Source: Opitutus sp. GAS368
GTDB taxonomy: Bacteria > Verrucomicrobiota > Verrucomicrobiia > Opitutales > Opitutaceae
Direction: 5' to 3'
Assembly (NCBI GenBank): GCA_945861645.1
Contig: CAMAVZ010000004.1
Span: 18,777-82,776, forward strand
DNA length: 64,000 nucleotides
Shown here: piece after piece, positions 56,961 through 62,471 of the stretch
Layout of the letters: every line of letters begins with the position of its first letter
How positions within the stretch are numbered: the stretch's first letter is position 1
Position numbers and translations under genes: made by a program
The notes under the pieces: generated by a model
Told to the model about the DNA's origin: nothing
Databases searched by the model: none
The model's input: only the letters and a program-made list of their open reading frames with translations

Positions 56961-58250
56961 TTAAACCATCTTGCCGTTAGCGTAGACGATCTTGCCGGAC
57001 ACGATGGTGGTCTTCACGCAACCGGTCAGTGATTGCTGGTTCCAAGGCGAATTGATCGATTTGCTAAAAGCGCCGTAGGTATTGTAGAGCCACGTCTCAT
57101 TGGGATCGAAGATACAAACATCCGCGACTGCGCCAGCCGCGAGCGTGCCCGCCGGGAGTTTTAGGATATTCGCGGCCTTGCGCGTCATGAGGTCGATGAC
57201 TTGAGTCAGCTTAAATTTACTTTTCCGCACGAGGACATCGAGGCAGATGGGCAAAGCCGTCTCGAGCCCGATAATCCCATTCGGGGCATAATCAAATTCG
57301 CGGTCTTTTTCCTCGGGGGCGTGGGGCGCGTGGTCGGTACCGATGCAGTCAAGCGTCCCGTCTTTCAGGCCGGCGATAATCGCCTTGCGATCTGCTTCCG
57401 TGCGCAACGGCGGGTTCATCTTGAGGTTGGTATCGTAAGTGCCGAGCGCATCCTCGGTCAGCGCAATGTGATGAGGGGTGGCTTCAGCGGTGACGTTGAC
57501 CTTGTCTTGCTTGGCCCGGCGCATGAGTTCGACGGAGTGCGCCGAACTGATGTGTTGCATGTGAATATGGGCGCCGGTGTAGCGCGAGAGGATGATATTG
57601 CGCGCCACGATGATATCTTCGGCGGCGTGCGGCCAACCCTTGAGGCCTAAACGGGTCGACATCACGCCTTCATTCATGACGGCCTTGTCGGTCATCGACT
57701 CATCTTGGCAGTGGTCGAGAATAGTTAGGTCGAACATTTTAGCGTATTCGACGGCGCGGTGCATGAGTTCGTTAGACTGAACGCACAAGCCGTCATCGGT
57801 GAGGGCGACGACCCCGGCTTTTTTTAATGAGCCATGGGGTGCAAGTTGTTGCCCCTTCATCCCCACCGTAATGCAGCCCGTGGCGTAAACATGCACGGGG
57901 GCGTTGGCGGCGGCGGCGTTGATGAGTTGAATGGTCCCGGTATTATCGGCGACGGGGGATGTATTCGGCATGCACACCACCGAGGTGAATCCGCCGGCGG
58001 CAGCGGCTTGAGCGCCCGTCAGGATTGTCTCTTTGTGCGTCTGACCGGGTTCGCGGAAATGCACATGAATATCCACGAGACCAGGACAAACCACGAGTCC
58101 GCGGGCTTCGATGACCTGCGCAGTTTTTTGCTGGGCCGAGGTTAGTGTTTTGACGAATTTACCATCGGCAATGAAGACGTCACTGACTTTATCCCGCTTG
58201 GCCGCAGGGTCGATGACGCGGCCGTTTTTAATGATGAGCAAGGCAGGCAT
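56961..58250 (-). CDS. pyrC: Dihydroorotase (type I)
   Basis: DIHVHFREPG, MPNT, KMNPPLR and TDHAPH. Confidence 0.95.
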   Translation of the reverse strand: MPALLIIKNGRVIDPAAKRDKVSDVFIADGKFVKTLTSAQQKTAQVIEARGLVVCPGLVDIHVHFREPGQTHKETILTGAQAAAAGGFTSVVCMPNTSPVADNTGTIQLINAAAANAPVHVYATGCITVGMKGQQLAPHGSLKKAGVVALTDDGLCVQSNELMHRAVEYAKMFDLTILDHCQDESMTDKAVMNEGVMSTRLGLKGWPHAAEDIIVARNIILSRYTGAHIHMQHISSAHSVELMRRAKQDKVNVTAEATPHHIALTEDALGTYDTNLKMNPPLRTEADRKAIIAGLKDGTLDCIGTDHAPHAPEEKDREFDYAPNGIIGLETALPICLDVLVRKSKFKLTQVIDLMTRKAANILKLPAGTLAAGAVADVCIFDPNETWLYNTYGAFSKSINSPWNQQSLTGCVKTTIVSGKIVYANGKMV

Positions 58251-58316
58251 GTTTAAAAGTTAGCCACAAAAATGGTATTGAAGAAAAGAAGAGGGGGAAG
58301 AAGAGGAATAGGAATT

Positions 58317-58345
58317 GGCCACAAAAAACACCAGAAACACAAAAA
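58317..58345 (+). repeat. Left inverted repeat of the GxxExxY cassette
   Basis: GGCCACAAAAAACACCAGAAACACAAAAA; 27/29 match to the reverse complement of 58746-58774. Confidence 0.9.
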
Positions 58346-58347
58346 AT

Positions 58348-58737
58348 TCAGGCCGTAGGATCGGACATGAGGTATTTTTTAACGTGAAGACGCGAGGAAC
58401 CGAAATTGATAAGCAGGCCGGTTTCGATTCGACCGGAACGCAAATAACCGAGCAGCTGAGCGATGTGTTCCTCTGCGACTGATCGTGCCGCCTTAAGTTC
58501 TACGATCAGTTGGCCGTCAATGAATAGGTCCGCAAAGAATTCGCCGAGCACGGTGCCGTCCTCATCATGTACTGTCAGCGGATACTGTTGCTTAACGTCC
58601 AGACCCTGCTTGCGCAGTCGATGAACGAGGGCGTTTTCGTAAATTTTTTCCATATGCCCGTTTCGATGATAATAGTGAATAGCGAAGCTGGTTTCTCGGA
58701 CTATATCACAGAGTTGATTAATCGGATTTTTTCTCAT
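58348..58737 (-). CDS. GxxExxY protein (PD-(D/E)XK nuclease-like family)
   Basis: 129 aa; GHMEKIY (GxxExxY), ADLFID..LIVELKA, AQLLGYL and GLLINFG. Confidence 0.93.
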   Translation of the reverse strand: MRKNPINQLCDIVRETSFAIHYYHRNGHMEKIYENALVHRLRKQGLDVKQQYPLTVHDEDGTVLGEFFADLFIDGQLIVELKAARSVAEEHIAQLLGYLRSGRIETGLLINFGSSRLHVKKYLMSDPTA

Positions 58738-58745
58738 GGGTCTAC

Positions 58746-58774
58746 TTTTTGTGTTTTTCGTGTTTTTTGTGGCC
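58746..58774 (-). repeat. Right inverted repeat of the GxxExxY cassette
   Basis: TTTTTGTGTTTTTCGTGTTTTTTGTGGCC, 8 nt upstream of the GxxExxY ATG. Confidence 0.9.
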
Positions 58775-58788
58775 CATTGAATTGGAGA

Positions 58789-59736
58789 TCACTCGACCGG
58801 GGCGAGGACGGCTTCAGGTTGGCCGCCGGCGCAGAGGTAGAGAGCAGCCATGCGGACGGCGATGCCGTTGGTGACTTGTCGGAGGATCACGCTGCGGGGC
58901 GAGTCAGCGATATCGCTATCGATTTCAACGCCGCGGTTGATCGGCCCTGGGTGCATAATAATGGCATCCGGTTTAACCCAGCTAGCACGGGTATAATTGA
59001 GGCCAAACATGCTGGTATATTCGCCGATGGAGGGGAAGTGGCTGACACCTTGGCGCTCGTGTTGGATGCGGAGCAGCATGACCACGTCGGCATCTGCGAG
59101 CGCGGTGCGGAGATGATGCGAGACTTTGACGCCCATGGATTCAAACCAGTGGGGAACGAGGGTCGAGGGTCCGACAATTGTCACATCAGCCCCGAGTTTG
59201 GTGAGAGCGTGAATATTGGAGCGGGCTACTCGGCTAAAAAGAATGTCGCCGAGGATGACGACCTTGCGGCCTTTCAGATTCCCCAGTTTCTCGCGCATCG
59301 TGAACACATCAAGCAAGGCTTGCGTTGGGTGTTCGTGCGCACCGTCACCGGCATTGATGACGGGGATATCTAACACCCGGCTCAGGTAGAGTGGGGAACC
59401 ACTCGCCGAGTGGCGCAAGACGATCATATCGGCATTGAGGGCCTGAATATTTTGCGCGGTATCGCGGAGCGTTTCGCCCTTGGTCGTGCTGGAGGCGGCG
59501 GCGTCGAAGGAGATCACGTCGGCGCTCAGAAGTTTAGCCGCCATCTCGAAAGACATGCGGGTGCGGGTGCTGGGCTCGAGAAAAAGATTAACGATCGTCT
59601 TGCCGCGCAGTGCGGGGACTTTCTTGACCTTGCGGTCGAGGATACGGCGGAAGGCGCCGGCCGTGATTAGCAATTGTTCGATCTCAGCGCGGCTGAGCTC
59701 TTCGATCGTCAGGAGATGTTTACGATGCCAAGGCAC
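58789..59736 (-). CDS. pyrB: Aspartate carbamoyltransferase catalytic subunit
   Basis: EPSTRT.SF, KGETL.DT, NAGDG.HEHPTQALLD, SRVARS and MHPGP.NRG. Confidence 0.97.
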   Translation of the reverse strand: MPWHRKHLLTIEELSRAEIEQLLITAGAFRRILDRKVKKVPALRGKTIVNLFLEPSTRTRMSFEMAAKLLSADVISFDAAASSTTKGETLRDTAQNIQALNADMIVLRHSASGSPLYLSRVLDIPVINAGDGAHEHPTQALLDVFTMREKLGNLKGRKVVILGDILFSRVARSNIHALTKLGADVTIVGPSTLVPHWFESMGVKVSHHLRTALADADVVMLLRIQHERQGVSHFPSIGEYTSMFGLNYTRASWVKPDAIIMHPGPINRGVEIDSDIADSPRSVILRQVTNGIAVRMAALYLCAGGQPEAVLAPVE

Positions 59737-60319
59737 GGGCGGAGGAATTTGATTTTTTCTTCACAGGTTTAACTTTTAAAGGGGCCGGAGCAGCCGGAAT
59801 GGTAATGGAATCATGGCTCGGCTGCAGGGCATCGAGGTGGACTTTGACTTTTTCCGTGTCGGTTGCGCTGATTGTGAGGCCGCAGTAACTGGCGGCGATG
59901 GGCAGCCGGCGGCCACCGCGATCCACGAGTACCGCCAGTTCCACTAACGCTGGGCGGCCATGGTCAAATAATTCAGCGAGAGCTGCCTTGATGGTCCGGC
60001 CCGAGTAAAGAACGTCGTCCACGAGAATGACGGTGGCGCCATTAACATCGTGAGGAATGACGGTTGGGGAGAATTCTTTCGGAATGGGATGGCGGCCGAT
60101 GTCATCCCGATGAAACGAGATATCAATCGTGCCGAGTTCGAGCCGCAGGCCGGCTTTTTTTAACCGAGCGGCTAAGCGCTGAGCGAGATTGAGGCCGCCG
60201 TTAGCAATACCCAGGAGCAGTAAATTTTTGGTCTGCTGGTGTCGTTGGGCAATGGCGGTAGCGATTCGACCGATGGCTTGGTCAATGGATTGCGCGTCGT
60301 GCTGCAGGAGAGTGGCCAC
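59720..60319 (-). CDS. pyrR: Bifunctional pyr regulator / uracil phosphoribosyltransferase PyrR
   Basis: DISFHRDD, ILVDDVLYSGRT and VLVDRGGRRLPI. Overlaps the pyrB start. Confidence 0.92.
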   Translation of the reverse strand: MATLLQHDAQSIDQAIGRIATAIAQRHQQTKNLLLLGIANGGLNLAQRLAARLKKAGLRLELGTIDISFHRDDIGRHPIPKEFSPTVIPHDVNGATVILVDDVLYSGRTIKAALAELFDHGRPALVELAVLVDRGGRRLPIAASYCGLTISATDTEKVKVHLDALQPSHDSITIPAAPAPLKVKPVKKKSNSSARALAS

Positions 60320-60404
60320 GAGCCCGAGGTTTTGAGGGGTGGTAGGGGAGGCGTCCAGCGTAAAGCACTATCCCGTTAAACACGGAGCGAATCGATCCCT
60401 GATT

Positions 60405-60810
60405 GCCTCAAAAAGCACAAGAAGACGCAGAATCGGCTAAGGCAGGCGGCGGAAAAGAAGAAATTGGGAAACGGGAGCGCGAAGCTTAGGTTTAAGTTTT
60501 AAGGGGTAAGTTTTAAGCTCGGAGCGGATCGACCGATCGACCAAGGCATTTTTAACCGCGAAAGGCGCGAAATGACGCGAAGGGTCCAGACCTCTAGCCT
60601 CTAGCCTGAAGCCTACGAGCCGCCACAAAAAGCCCAGAGGGCGCAGAATCGGCCAAGGGAGGCGGTGGAAAAGAAGAAATTGAGAAAGTGGAAAATTGGG
60701 AAACGGCAGTCGAAAGCCGGAGATCGGCTCCATAATCCATAACCTCTGACCTCTCACCCAAAGCCTACGAGCCGCCACAAAAAGCCCAGAAGGCGCAGAA
60801 TCGGCTAAGG
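60405..60810. repeat. Mosaic intergenic repeat array: three imperfect direct repeats built from 7-, 8- and 9-bp periodic motifs
   Basis: 60609-60658 and 60761-60810 are 48/50 identical. 60426-60466 and 60642-60682 are 38/41 identical. Confidence 0.88.
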
Positions 60811-60816
60811 TATGGC

Positions 60817-61479
60817 TCAGAGCGGGGTGACGCAATCGGGTGCTTGGTAGCGGGAATTGTTCATCTTCGGGTCGACGCGATGGCTCTGCATCATTTCGCT
60901 GGGGAGCGGACGGCAGAGTCGGCTAAGCTGACTTGGGTCGAGCGGGGCATCGCCCAACCAAGCGGGACCGCTATTGGGGCCTAACATCACGGGCATGCGG
61001 TCATGAATCGGTTGCAGGAGAGAGTTGGGGGTAGTCGTGACGAGGCAAAATGCCGCGGGGCCCTGTTCGCTGGCGGGTGACCATAATCCGGCAAAGAAAA
61101 AACTTTGGCCGGTTTTTAAGCTAAAATAATGCGGCAGGCGCGTGGTGCCTTGTTTTTCCCATTCATAAAAACCATCGGCGAGGACGAGGCAGCGGCGATG
61201 AAGCGTCGCTTCACAAAAGCTACTTTTGCTTAATAAAGTTTCAGCGCGGGCATTGCCCAGTATCAGGGGGCGCTGAGTGGGGGTGCGGGCGGGTAGGGTT
61301 AGGCCGAAGCTCAGTCGCGCCAATTCGGGGGCGCCCTGTTGGGTGATGACTGGCATGAGGCTGGTGAGAGCCACGTTGTAGTGCGGCGTCCAGTCCGCAT
61401 CCGCCGCGGGCAAGGTATCGTTGAGGCCAGCCGGCAAGGCCACGCGGTTAATTTTTTTAAGAGTATAACGAAGGCACAT
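60817..61479 (-). CDS. SOS response-associated peptidase (SRAP, YedK/HMCES-like)
   Basis: N-terminal MC, NARAET, RCLV.ADGFYEW and IHDRMPV. Confidence 0.92.
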   Translation of the reverse strand: MCLRYTLKKINRVALPAGLNDTLPAADADWTPHYNVALTSLMPVITQQGAPELARLSFGLTLPARTPTQRPLILGNARAETLLSKSSFCEATLHRRCLVLADGFYEWEKQGTTRLPHYFSLKTGQSFFFAGLWSPASEQGPAAFCLVTTTPNSLLQPIHDRMPVMLGPNSGPAWLGDAPLDPSQLSRLCRPLPSEMMQSHRVDPKMNNSRYQAPDCVTPL

Positions 61480-61561
61480 GGCTCGCTAAAGCGGGTGGCA
61501 GTTGGGTCACGAGTGTGGCTGGGAAGCACTATAAATCAAGGGGTTGAGCGAAACTATGCTT

Positions 61562-61597
61562 AAAAACACAAAGGCCGCTCACCCCTGAGCGGCCTTT
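61562..61597 (-). terminator. Intrinsic terminator hairpin (strongest on the minus strand)
   Basis: AAAGGCCGCTCA-cccc-TGAGCGGCCTTT. The minus strand continues TTTGTGTTTTT. Confidence 0.75.
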
Positions 61598-61952
61598 AAC
61601 CCTAACCTAACACCAAATAACCCTTGAACTACATTGCGTAAGATGCGGCCGGCGCGAGAACGTTCAAAGATTTATAAGCCAAGCGCCTGCGCCAATTCTA
61701 GGGCAGAAAATGCCCCGGGGTCTTGTCCGCGATGTGCAAATTGACCGCACCATCATGCTGGTGATGGGGTGTCCATGCAGCGAAATATCGAGTGTTTCGC
61801 TGCATGCATATACCTGGCGCCGATTTTGGGGGACTAACAGACTCAGGTCGGAGTCGGAGAGCGGTGTTGCATAGCGGCGAGTATACTTTTTTTGTTTTAT
61901 TGTATGTAAAACTCGCTTGCCCTTTATTAGTAAGACCGTGAGTTAGTAAGCC

Positions 61953-62471
61953 TTGCTGCAATCCGATAACTCTAAATGGTTTACCGCTGAACTCGCTCCC
62001 CATGAGCAAGCTCTGAGGGCTTATCTTCGCGGCCTGGTCAACCCCTCGGAGATCGATGATATTGTGCAAGAAACCTATGTGCGTTTGCTCCGCGCGCGCG
62101 ATCGCGGCAACATTGTTTCACCTCGTGGGCTGCTTTTTGCCACTGCCCGCAATGCCGCGCGCGATTTGTTTCGTCGTCGGACTACGGCTAATACGATTTC
62201 CGTAGCGGAAATCGACGAGGCGCGCGTCATCGACAATGCTCCTAATGCCGCCGAGATTGCAGATCGCCATCAGCAGACCGACCTTCTGGCGGCTGCGATC
62301 GCGGAGCTGCCGCCGCGCTGCCGTGAGATACTTGTTTTGCGTAAATTTGAAAACCTCTCCCATCGCGAAATCGCCCAAAAGCTTGGCATCTCCCAGCACA
62401 CGGTGGAATCGCAGCTGACCAAGGCGCTGCATCGCTGCGTGGAATTTTTTGCCCGACGCGGTCTACCCTAA
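61953..62471 (+). CDS. ECF sigma factor (FecI-like)
   Basis: DDIVQETYVRL, LFATARN, LPPRCREIL and SHREIA..LGIS..TVESQL. Confidence 0.93.
   Translation: MLQSDNSKWFTAELAPHEQALRAYLRGLVNPSEIDDIVQETYVRLLRARDRGNIVSPRGLLFATARNAARDLFRRRTTANTISVAEIDEARVIDNAPNAAEIADRHQQTDLLAAAIAELPPRCREILVLRKFENLSHREIAQKLGISQHTVESQLTKALHRCVEFFARRGLP

Follow-up and report, generated by a model that had tools for sequence, protein, structure and literature searches.

Upstream of pyrR, in a 64,000-nt stretch of DNA from Opitutus sp. GAS368 (assembly GCA_945861645.1, contig CAMAVZ010000004.1, positions 18,777 to 82,776 of the forward strand; hereafter the window), an array of short periodic repeats occupies the 497-bp spacer that separates pyrR from the gene of an SOS-response-associated peptidase (SRAP). 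What is such an array made of, and how did it come to stand there? We conclude that the spacer, at about 60383-60816, is probably a gene-less, co-oriented and non-coding mosaic of 'orphan cassette arms', similar to the mosaic elements that lie between genes in Neisseria (NIMEs) and the bacterial interspersed mosaic elements (BIMEs) of E. coli, remodelled by recombination and slippage and consisting of selfish or leftover DNA. If this is correct, the arms of two widespread families whose role is unknown, GxxExxY/PDDEXK_3 and the '23S rRNA intervening-sequence' four-helix bundle, persist without their genes, and a shared linker connects the arms of both in polar arrays whose make-up changes from one sister genome to another. 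The genome that contains the window (G000) is a 2.30-Mb draft in 116 contigs with a completeness of 84%, and the window lies on its contig C4.

A preliminary description, made from the letters of the window alone, had listed the motifs of the array, and a base-by-base reading located every one of them. They comprise four motifs with a 9-bp period (60405, 60554, 60622 and 60774), heptamer runs starting at 60585 and 60730, two copies of TAAGTTTTAAG (60493-60503 and 60507-60517), an 8-mer run at 60677, and GATCGACC twice at 60527. Tandem Repeats Finder (TRF) returned five short-period rows for the array, with periods of 7, 8, 9, 7 and 8; the period-7 rows are intergenic, head-to-tail runs of at least two heptamers. 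The 17-nt core CGCAGAATCGGCYAAGG, allowing up to 2 mismatches, has three copies in the window, all within the array, against an expectation of 0.04, and a count of three was reached in 0 of 100 shuffles. On a larger scale, the repeat search found direct repeats of 69 nt (60590/60742, 88% identity, spacing 152), of 66 nt (D2; 60411/60627, 82% identity, spacing 216) and of 20 nt (D4; 60376/60513, 85% identity, spacing 137), while it found no pair of inverted repeats in 60300-60850. The preliminary description had also stated that the array holds no open reading frame, which is right in substance. The sole long frame of the spacer (60437-60835, minus strand, 132 aa) is composed of repeats and matched no NCBIfam family, although Pfam was not scanned, and we rejected the array as coding DNA; arrays of this kind yield spurious 'hypothetical proteins', of which this frame is an example.

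Using five seed stretches chosen by coordinate and iterated nhmmer searches, we defined five module families in the whole genome. Family E (21 copies) consists of GCCACAAAAAGC-NCAGAAGG-CGCAGAA followed by CGACCAAGGCA; family C (31 copies) consists of CGACCAAGGCA-TTTTTAACC followed by CGCGAAGGG-CGCGAAGTGA-CGCGAAGGG; family K (9 copies) is of the CACGAAAAA/CACAAAAA type; family M (5 copies) is of the CAGGATGG type; and family P (28 copies) is polypurine, GGAAAAGATGAAA-NNN-GGGAAAGTAGAAAAT-TGGGAAAC, with a period of 8/16. To these we added three heptamer types, h1 (CCTCTNR), h2 (CCATAAY) and h3 (TTTAAGN). A frame opened by the ATG of consensus P was tried and rejected, as its register is lost between copies (spacings of 102 and 103 nt) and the ATG is missing in the array of the window.

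With this vocabulary, the array in the window can be read along the plus strand, on which all its modules lie, including the three E copies and the single C, in the order E, P', h3, GATCGACC twice, C, h1, E, P, h2-h1 and E. The first E module (60405..60442, detected by the nhmmer model of family E) is GCCNCAAAAAGC-ACAAGAAGA-CGCAGAA followed by the linker TCGGCTAAGG. It leads into P' (60443..60484), a polypurine module with the 8/16-bp period that a visual comparison with the complete P at 60659 shows to be one 16-nt period short; this short copy was missed by the P model and belongs to one arm of the 66-nt repeat D2. The h3 run (60485..60526; TRF period 7, 3.9 copies) ends in its usual tail CTCGGAGCGGATCGA, and the run together with this tail recurs in other arrays of the genome. 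Then comes the stretch at 60527..60584, in which the doubled GATCGACC precedes a C module made up of the linker CGACCAAGGCA, TTTTTAACC and the units CGCGAAAGG-CGCGAAATGA-CGCGAAGGG (family C). A CCTCTAG-type heptamer run of class h1 (60585..60616; TRF period 7) leads into the second E copy (60617..60658), which is followed by a P module of full length plus tail (60659..60729; nhmmer family P). Two CCATAAY heptamers (h2) and two CCTCTNA heptamers (h1) occupy 60730..60768, as recognised by comparison with the sister genomes and with the arm words of the cassette L112 described below, and the third E copy (60769..60810) ends 6 nt short of the SRAP stop codon. The second and third E copies were each found by the repeat search, the core-motif scan and the family E model.

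The genome-wide motif search proposed in the preliminary description revealed that the array is one of many. Many other intergenic regions contain matches to pieces of the spacer (88 blastn-short rows, counting the self-match), one such match, on contig C7, extending over 210 nt at 92% identity. Profile searches yielded 94 modules, which group into 34 arrays with a combined length of about 8 kb, and these counts are approximate, given that the models were built from this genome, arrays were delimited by a 150-nt gap rule and the gene map was a crude one of longest open reading frames. The strand is uniform in 23 of the 24 arrays with at least two oriented modules, and h1 runs are co-oriented in every case. 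The first module of the array is E in 13 of 34 arrays, and the adjacent pairs that recur are E>P (9), C>P (9), P>C (8), C>reversed h3 (7), E>K (6), P>h1 (6) and K>C (4). Two short sequences separate the modules. The linker CGRMYAAGG occurs 22 times in arrays (2.76 per kb, vs 0.12 outside), and TTTTTRACC, which succeeds the shared linker in C-type and M-type modules, occurs 21 times (2.64 per kb, vs 0.037 outside); all the array copies of both are co-oriented. The flanking genes show no comparable order. In the frame of the array they are minus/minus in 10 cases, convergent in 9, divergent in 7 and plus/plus in 5, with no preference of array strand relative to neighbouring genes, the 10 antisense vs 5 sense tandem cases being too few to weigh. 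In 23 of 34 arrays the purine-rich module strand coincides with the G-rich strand, a weak and non-significant lean, as arrays on one contig are not independent.

The distribution of the modules among relatives is narrow. When the spacer was searched against a draw of 41 relatives' genomes, many matches were obtained solely in G004 (35) and G016 (38), whose PyrR is 94% identical to that of the window; G002 had 11 matches, all to the C module, and the remaining genomes had 0 to 2. A search of one genome per species with the exact degenerate P pattern returned 34 stretches, and because these are restricted to four related lake records of metagenome-assembled genomes (MAGs; Verrucomicrobia, Opitutia, Opitutaceae), P is confined to a small clade.

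The preliminary description had proposed comparing unit numbers among close relatives, and this comparison was informative. The pyrR-SRAP spacer is syntenic in the three genomes and measures 497 bp in G000, 405 bp in G004 and 305 bp in G016. Next to a unique stretch U that adjoins pyrR, G016 carries E, P, two h2, four h1 and E, and G004 carries GATCGACC twice, C, h1, E, P, nine h2, h1 and E, lacking the first E copy of the window; G000 has both extra blocks. The 66-nt E-P direct repeat D2 (spacing 216) delimits the block difference of G016, and the repeat CGGAGCGRATCGA (D4, spacing 137), itself the usual h3 tail, delimits that of G004. The copy number of the h2 heptamer CCATAAC is 2 in G000, 9 in G004 and 2 in G016. 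A second array, on contig C38, has the order E, C', h3, h1, K, C in G000; G004 has E, K, C there, and G016 has E, C' and h3 together with a C tail. At a third (C7:2946-3208), G016 (L072) has 7.7 kb more, comprising three genes, an array, a gene of 432 aa and a second array, of which nothing but array modules was found in the G000 assembly. In G004 the two flanks of this locus lie on different contigs, and a homologue of the 432-aa gene (L074) likewise stands between two co-oriented arrays. Because of this 7.7-kb excess, arrays can be said to mark differences in gene content; one of the three compared arrays coincides with a synteny break in these draft genomes, and arrays are likely recombination substrates that move or remove neighbouring genes.

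An array of this kind could also be produced by faulty assembly or by chimeric joins at repeats, and the fragmentation of the genome into 116 contigs, the coincidence of arrays with synteny breaks and the fact that no single public contig spans the whole array would fit such an origin. We give it practically no credence. The array stands, with module variants, between the same two genes in two further assemblies, three in all, and contigs from two DNA runs of other studies' lake metagenomes cover it piecewise. In run X5, the pieces 60343-60493, 60464-60585, 60556-60633, 60604-60799 and 60771-61500 differ from the window at 0, 3, 0, 0 and 1 positions; they overlap from 60343 to 61500, so that every module junction is internal to some piece of an independent run. 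Depth over the C module was about 7-9 times that of the flanks, as expected of a multi-copy module. Modules are no commoner at contig ends than expected (2 of 232, vs 2.85 expected), and we rejected the repeats as the cause of contig breaks.

The origin of the modules became clearer from the small gene cassettes of this clade. The window genome has a single GxxExxY (PDDEXK_3) gene (58348-58737; 129 aa; TIGR04256 107.9 bits, PF13366 97.6 bits), which lies in a block on the minus strand (58243..58792), 1.6 kb from the array and between pyrC and pyrB. It is flanked by inverted K-type arms with a 9-bp period at about 58318-58347 and 58745-58775, and a P-like polypurine stretch and an E-like stub are stacked outside the K arm on the downstream side. 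Five relatives contain 14 TIGR04256 matches, and all 13 of the genes that we inspected by eye there are flanked by inverted arms of three ~9-nt units. The arm words vary by cassette (CGCGAAG, CACAAAA, CGCAAAG, CACGGAT, CACAGAT, CAGAGG). The CGCGAAG arms of cassettes L032, L034 and L035 equal the C module, with the same TTAACC end; the CACAAAA class, as in L039, is that of the arms of the window's own cassette; the outer end of several cassettes is TTTTTAACC or a near variant; and the linker CCAAGGC stands at the cassette ends of L042 and partly of L038. The C module of the array has the same build, with three ~9-nt units of the C-R-C-R-R-A type behind TTAACC, while the array contains no TIGR04256/PF13366 gene and no inverted arms.

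A similar relationship was found for the heptamers. The same five relatives have 23 matches to the four-helix-bundle family TIGR02436, and 8 of 10 genes inspected by eye lie between inverted 7-/8-mer runs, one having a run on one side and one having none. The heptamer GCCTCTA, found in the arms of cassettes L113 and L114, equals h1 of the array, and CCCATAA/CCCATGA plus CCTCTCA, the arms of cassette L112, equal its h2 and h1. In the window genome (84% complete) TIGR02436 has no match, and the heptamer runs of the array are co-oriented rather than inverted. Hence, judged by their sequence, the 9-bp-period modules E and C share their motif classes with the inverted arms that terminate GxxExxY/PDDEXK_3 cassettes, and the heptamer runs are of the arm classes of four-helix-bundle (TIGR02436) cassettes. 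Both kinships had been put forward in the preliminary description, the second as unverified, and both were borne out in relatives: by all 13 GxxExxY genes, with the CGCGAAG and CACAAAA classes among their arms, and by 8 of 10 four-helix-bundle genes in this genus, with GCCTCTA and CCCATAA among theirs. Array and cassettes thus share motif classes, TTAACC ends and in part the linker; they differ in that the array is gene-less, strings the arms of both families one way and has an extra P module. The shared build suggests that the two cassette families have one way of handling DNA. Within the full-text collection that was searched, the names GxxExxY, PDDEXK_3 and four-helix bundle led to no description of arm-flanked cassettes or arm-only arrays. 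What is new relative to the literature is the occurrence of arms of two orphan cassette families in polar gene-less arrays; intergenic mosaic repeats as such are already known.

The cassettes themselves come and go. The block of the window, about 550 bp including the P-like stretch and the E-like stub, is present in G000 and G004, and G016 has a 31-bp spacer in its place; within the pyr operon, the whole cassette is thus either present or absent as a unit. The GxxExxY loci L032, L033, L035 and L037 of G004 and G016 have no counterpart in the G000 assembly, which, at a completeness of 84%, need not mean that this genome lacks those cassettes. L033 (G016) and L037 (G004) occupy one orthologous site between two transporter-like genes and carry different GxxExxY cassettes with diverged proteins and different arm words, having in common solely the outermost 11 nt of the right arm. 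This pattern suggests a cassette replacement that left an outer stub.

We also asked how fast the array changes. Among the three genomes, identity is 0.80-0.90 at the four-fold sites of three genes (pyrB, pyrR and the one for SRAP) and 0.84-0.90 in aligned array columns. The E modules match their orthologues at 32-39 of 42 bases, and the h2-h1 block matches at 30-34 of 39 bases in comparisons with G000 and at 43 of 53 when G004 is set against G016; the drift of E and of the heptamers is thus about neutral. The C module matches its G004 orthologue at 57 of 58 bases, and P matches its orthologues at 66-67 of 71.

From these results, we propose the following course of events. The modules would have started out as the ends of cassettes, abandoned or copied during cassette exchange or loss, and duplication and recombination would afterwards have made the arrays grow. 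Block changes such as those of the pyrR-SRAP spacer may come about by recombination, namely unequal homologous exchange, between internal direct repeats, and changes in heptamer number may come about by replication slippage. The preliminary description had imagined a plainer scar of cassette gain and loss, and here the sequence disagrees. Because the loss of a gene should leave an inverted pair of arms and the array has no inverted repeats, a simple excision scar finds no support; the modules also tile the array end to end and leave no room for a gene remnant, although no translated search was made. Enrichment of the motifs beside small nuclease-like genes, which had also been expected, was not seen, as arrays occur in all intergenic contexts and most densely in a toxin-antitoxin island.

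Several observations weigh against an origin as orphan cassette arms without a role. The derivation from cassette ends draws on motif likeness and on two hints, the outer stub shared by L033 and L037 and the string of E-stub, P-like stretch and K arm at the window's cassette, and is to be read as a proposal. Strict co-orientation is unlike what is expected of leftovers of randomly decaying inverted-arm cassettes. Array number does not track the number of cassette genes, the window genome having one GxxExxY gene and no four-helix-bundle gene, and the P module has no known cassette source. C and P are, on small numbers, better kept than four-fold sites, which could reflect constraint or else gene conversion or copying between loci, so that the absence of a role is unproven. 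Contigs from two RNA libraries cover the array, which may be transcribed, although such contigs give no proof of transcription and no strand or ends. The three genomes are, moreover, about equidistant at four-fold sites, so that gain and loss are indistinguishable for each block change.

The spacer might be a protein-binding or regulatory array serving the pyr operon or the nucleoid, since it lies upstream of pyrR, its three-fold direct repeats resemble iterons, the conservation of C and P somewhat exceeds that of four-fold sites, and Aklujkar et al. read paired tandem 7/8-mers of Geobacter as 'global regulator binding sites' in the passage of their paper on these repeats (PMC2700814). We regard this as very unlikely. 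Modules are found without preference between convergent, divergent and tandem genes, whole modules are gained or lost between genomes whose PyrR is 94% identical, the drift of E and of the heptamers is about neutral, and Rfam returned no match, including no PyrR-binding RNA motif, over 58000-62000 at E values up to 1. A promoter and terminator scan of 59600-61600 gave no sites above shuffles and none in the array. Alternatively, the array might act as RNA, whether as a small RNA, as a sponge that captures an RNA-binding protein, or as a signal for processing within an SRAP-pyrR message. Both neighbouring genes are encoded on the minus strand, GGA/AAGG words rich in purines are common, and, among the contigs of the two RNA libraries that cover parts of the array, those of library X15, from a related strain, extend across the array, from pyrR to the SRAP gene; one of them has one heptamer fewer at 60591, and another has the G016-type 10-nt insertion after 60814. 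Even so, such a role is highly improbable. RNA folding showed no excess of structure over shuffles on the minus strand (z +0.57) or on the plus strand (z +1.99, with 98 of 100 shuffles folding at least as well), no Rfam family was matched, array orientation is independent of the neighbouring genes, and RNA libraries can carry DNA, the contigs being without ends or strand.

A further explanation accepts the cassette kinship and gives the arrays an active part. The junctions of linker and TTTTTRACC, together with the periodic arms, would be the recombination sites of an integrase-less cassette system shared by GxxExxY and four-helix-bundle genes, and the arrays would serve as docks with many sites or would preserve successive occupants as a stacked record; this is a sharper form of the landing array of the preliminary description. 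Cassettes and array modules end in the same junction, which has a constant orientation within arrays, and the arrays are polar like those of integrons. The GxxExxY cassette 1.6 kb away is present or absent as one block and sits at the end of a string of E-stub, P-like stretch and K, and G016 and G004 have different cassettes at one site, with the outer 11 nt of the right arm in common. We nevertheless consider an active landing or exchange site unlikely. In none of the three genomes is a cassette gene found in or adjoining this array, the array-rich genomes are poor in cassette genes, no recombinase candidate was identified, and the evidence of the stub is a single case; the block differences, bounded by long internal repeats, can be accounted for by ordinary homologous exchange. 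A bolder version, in which the arms and the linker/TTTTTRACC junction form the sites of an undescribed integrase-less system used by both the GxxExxY nuclease and the Avd-like four-helix bundle, with co-oriented arrays as docks holding a stacked record of occupants, seems quite unlikely to us; if true, the arrays would be a chromosomal analogue of the integron platform, spread over many operon spacers. A mosaic of orphan arms, remodelled by exchange and slippage, is the reading that we retain.

How does such a mosaic compare with known intergenic repeats? The NIMEs of Neisseria consist of varied repeat sequence (RS) modules separated by dRS3 repeats, and the passages of PMC1797815 devoted to them describe them as syntenic, variable and proposed to promote recombination. 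A subset of the dRS3/NTS repeats is the target of the small site-specific nuclease SsnA, according to the sections of PMC11893778 on this enzyme, which also mention BIMEs and IS200/IS605. As far as these passages characterise NIMEs, our arrays are like them in having a limited, shuffled vocabulary of 20-200-nt modules with a short common joining repeat in intergenic DNA, in keeping syntenic positions with a content that varies between relatives, in being thought to serve as recombination substrates, and in being tied to a small nuclease family. They differ in several respects. dRS3 is given as a 20-bp palindrome (ATTCCC-N8-GGGAAT), whereas the separators CGRMYAAGG and TTTTTRACC are non-palindromic; the modules here are one-way and internally periodic (7, 8 and 9 nt); the associated proteins are PD-(D/E)XK and four-helix-bundle proteins here and, in the same passages, GIY-YIG there; and the host is a freshwater verrucomicrobium with no known link to natural transformation.

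Repetitive extragenic palindromic (REP) elements and BIMEs, with their RAYT transposases, are likewise short extragenic repeats in mosaics whose copy number and content vary between strains, and REPs are hairpins in alternating orientation. The likeness lies in short extragenic repeats assembled into variable mosaics, but the arrays here have no inverted repeats and no excess fold. The Y1 transposase family PF01797 had no matches in G000, G004 and G016 (84, 99 and 94% complete), and 7 and 4 matches in two array-poor relatives. With no hairpins and no PF01797 match in the three array-rich genomes, we rejected a RAYT-driven REP system. Integron cassette arrays and attC clusters consist of polar, short recombination-site units, some of them gene-less, and resemble our arrays in polarity, gene-less units and association with toxin-antitoxin genes; the repeat search of 60300-60850 found no attC-like imperfect palindromes, and IntI integrase was not searched for. 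Among heptamer repeats, the short tandemly repeated repetitive (STRR) sequences of cyanobacteria are intergenic tandem heptamers. Intergenic tandem heptamers of the TAACTGA sets in Beggiatoaceae, cyanobacteria and Bacteroidetes were read as regulatory sites in the passages of PMC4679880 that treat them, as were tandem 7-mers and paired 8-mers of Geobacter metallireducens in those of PMC2700814. These heptamer sets, as there described, resemble the heptamers here in forming intergenic runs of 2-9 heptamers mixed with other heptamers, in variable copy number and in a suggested role in rearrangement; the same passages make no link to four-helix-bundle or GxxExxY genes or to 9-mer mosaics. The excess in bacterial genomes of tandem repeats with 7-9-nt units is likewise unexplained, and the arrays offer a compact natural system of three small freshwater genomes with 34 or more arrays and few genes.

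The genes next to the array are readily identified. pyrR (59720..60319, minus strand), placed downstream of the array in the preliminary description and confirmed as lying downstream in the sense of transcription, encodes a bifunctional pyr operon regulator / uracil phosphoribosyltransferase (NCBIfam NF003549, 162 bits against a cut-off of 138; Pfam Pribosyltran). The upstream neighbour on the same strand is the SRAP gene (60817..61479; PF02586, 164 bits). U (60320..60382, minus strand), the unique 63-nt stretch that adjoins pyrR outside the repeat vocabulary, is 94-98% identical in the three sister genomes (0.94-0.98, above the four-fold sites) and is likely a leader or promoter region. The public runs that contain the stretch come from lake or freshwater metagenomes.

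Further observations concern the cassettes and arrays of the clade at other loci. The four-helix-bundle cassettes L113 (G004), L114 (G002) and L112 (G024) lie between rfbB-like and rfbA-like genes of sugar-nucleotide operons, names that we read from translated ends, and the site carries different heptamer words in different genomes; in G002 (L121), one operon has cassettes in two successive spacers. On contig C5 of G016 (L075), two copies of the composite E-K-C-h3 stand head to tail, and E-K-C is found again in several arrays from G000, G004 and G016; because of this doubling and recurrence, multi-module units are taken to be duplicated as blocks. Array density in G000 is highest in the toxin-antitoxin island of contig C11 (about 2.6-13.7 kb, L054), whose genes include, by Pfam, HepT, ParE, PemK/MazF, PIN, AbiEii and KilA-N. 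This island contains further dense repeat types outside the five models, namely GC-rich hairpins followed by GTTTAAGTTGAAG and gene-less inverted shells of the TTTAAG type. An element of about 160 nt occurs at C11:10790-10960 and C11:50690-50870, both copies inside arrays, in which inverted CACGGA-type arms (AATTTAACCACGGA... and ...TCCGTG...GGATTAAA) flank a GC-rich core of about 110 nt.

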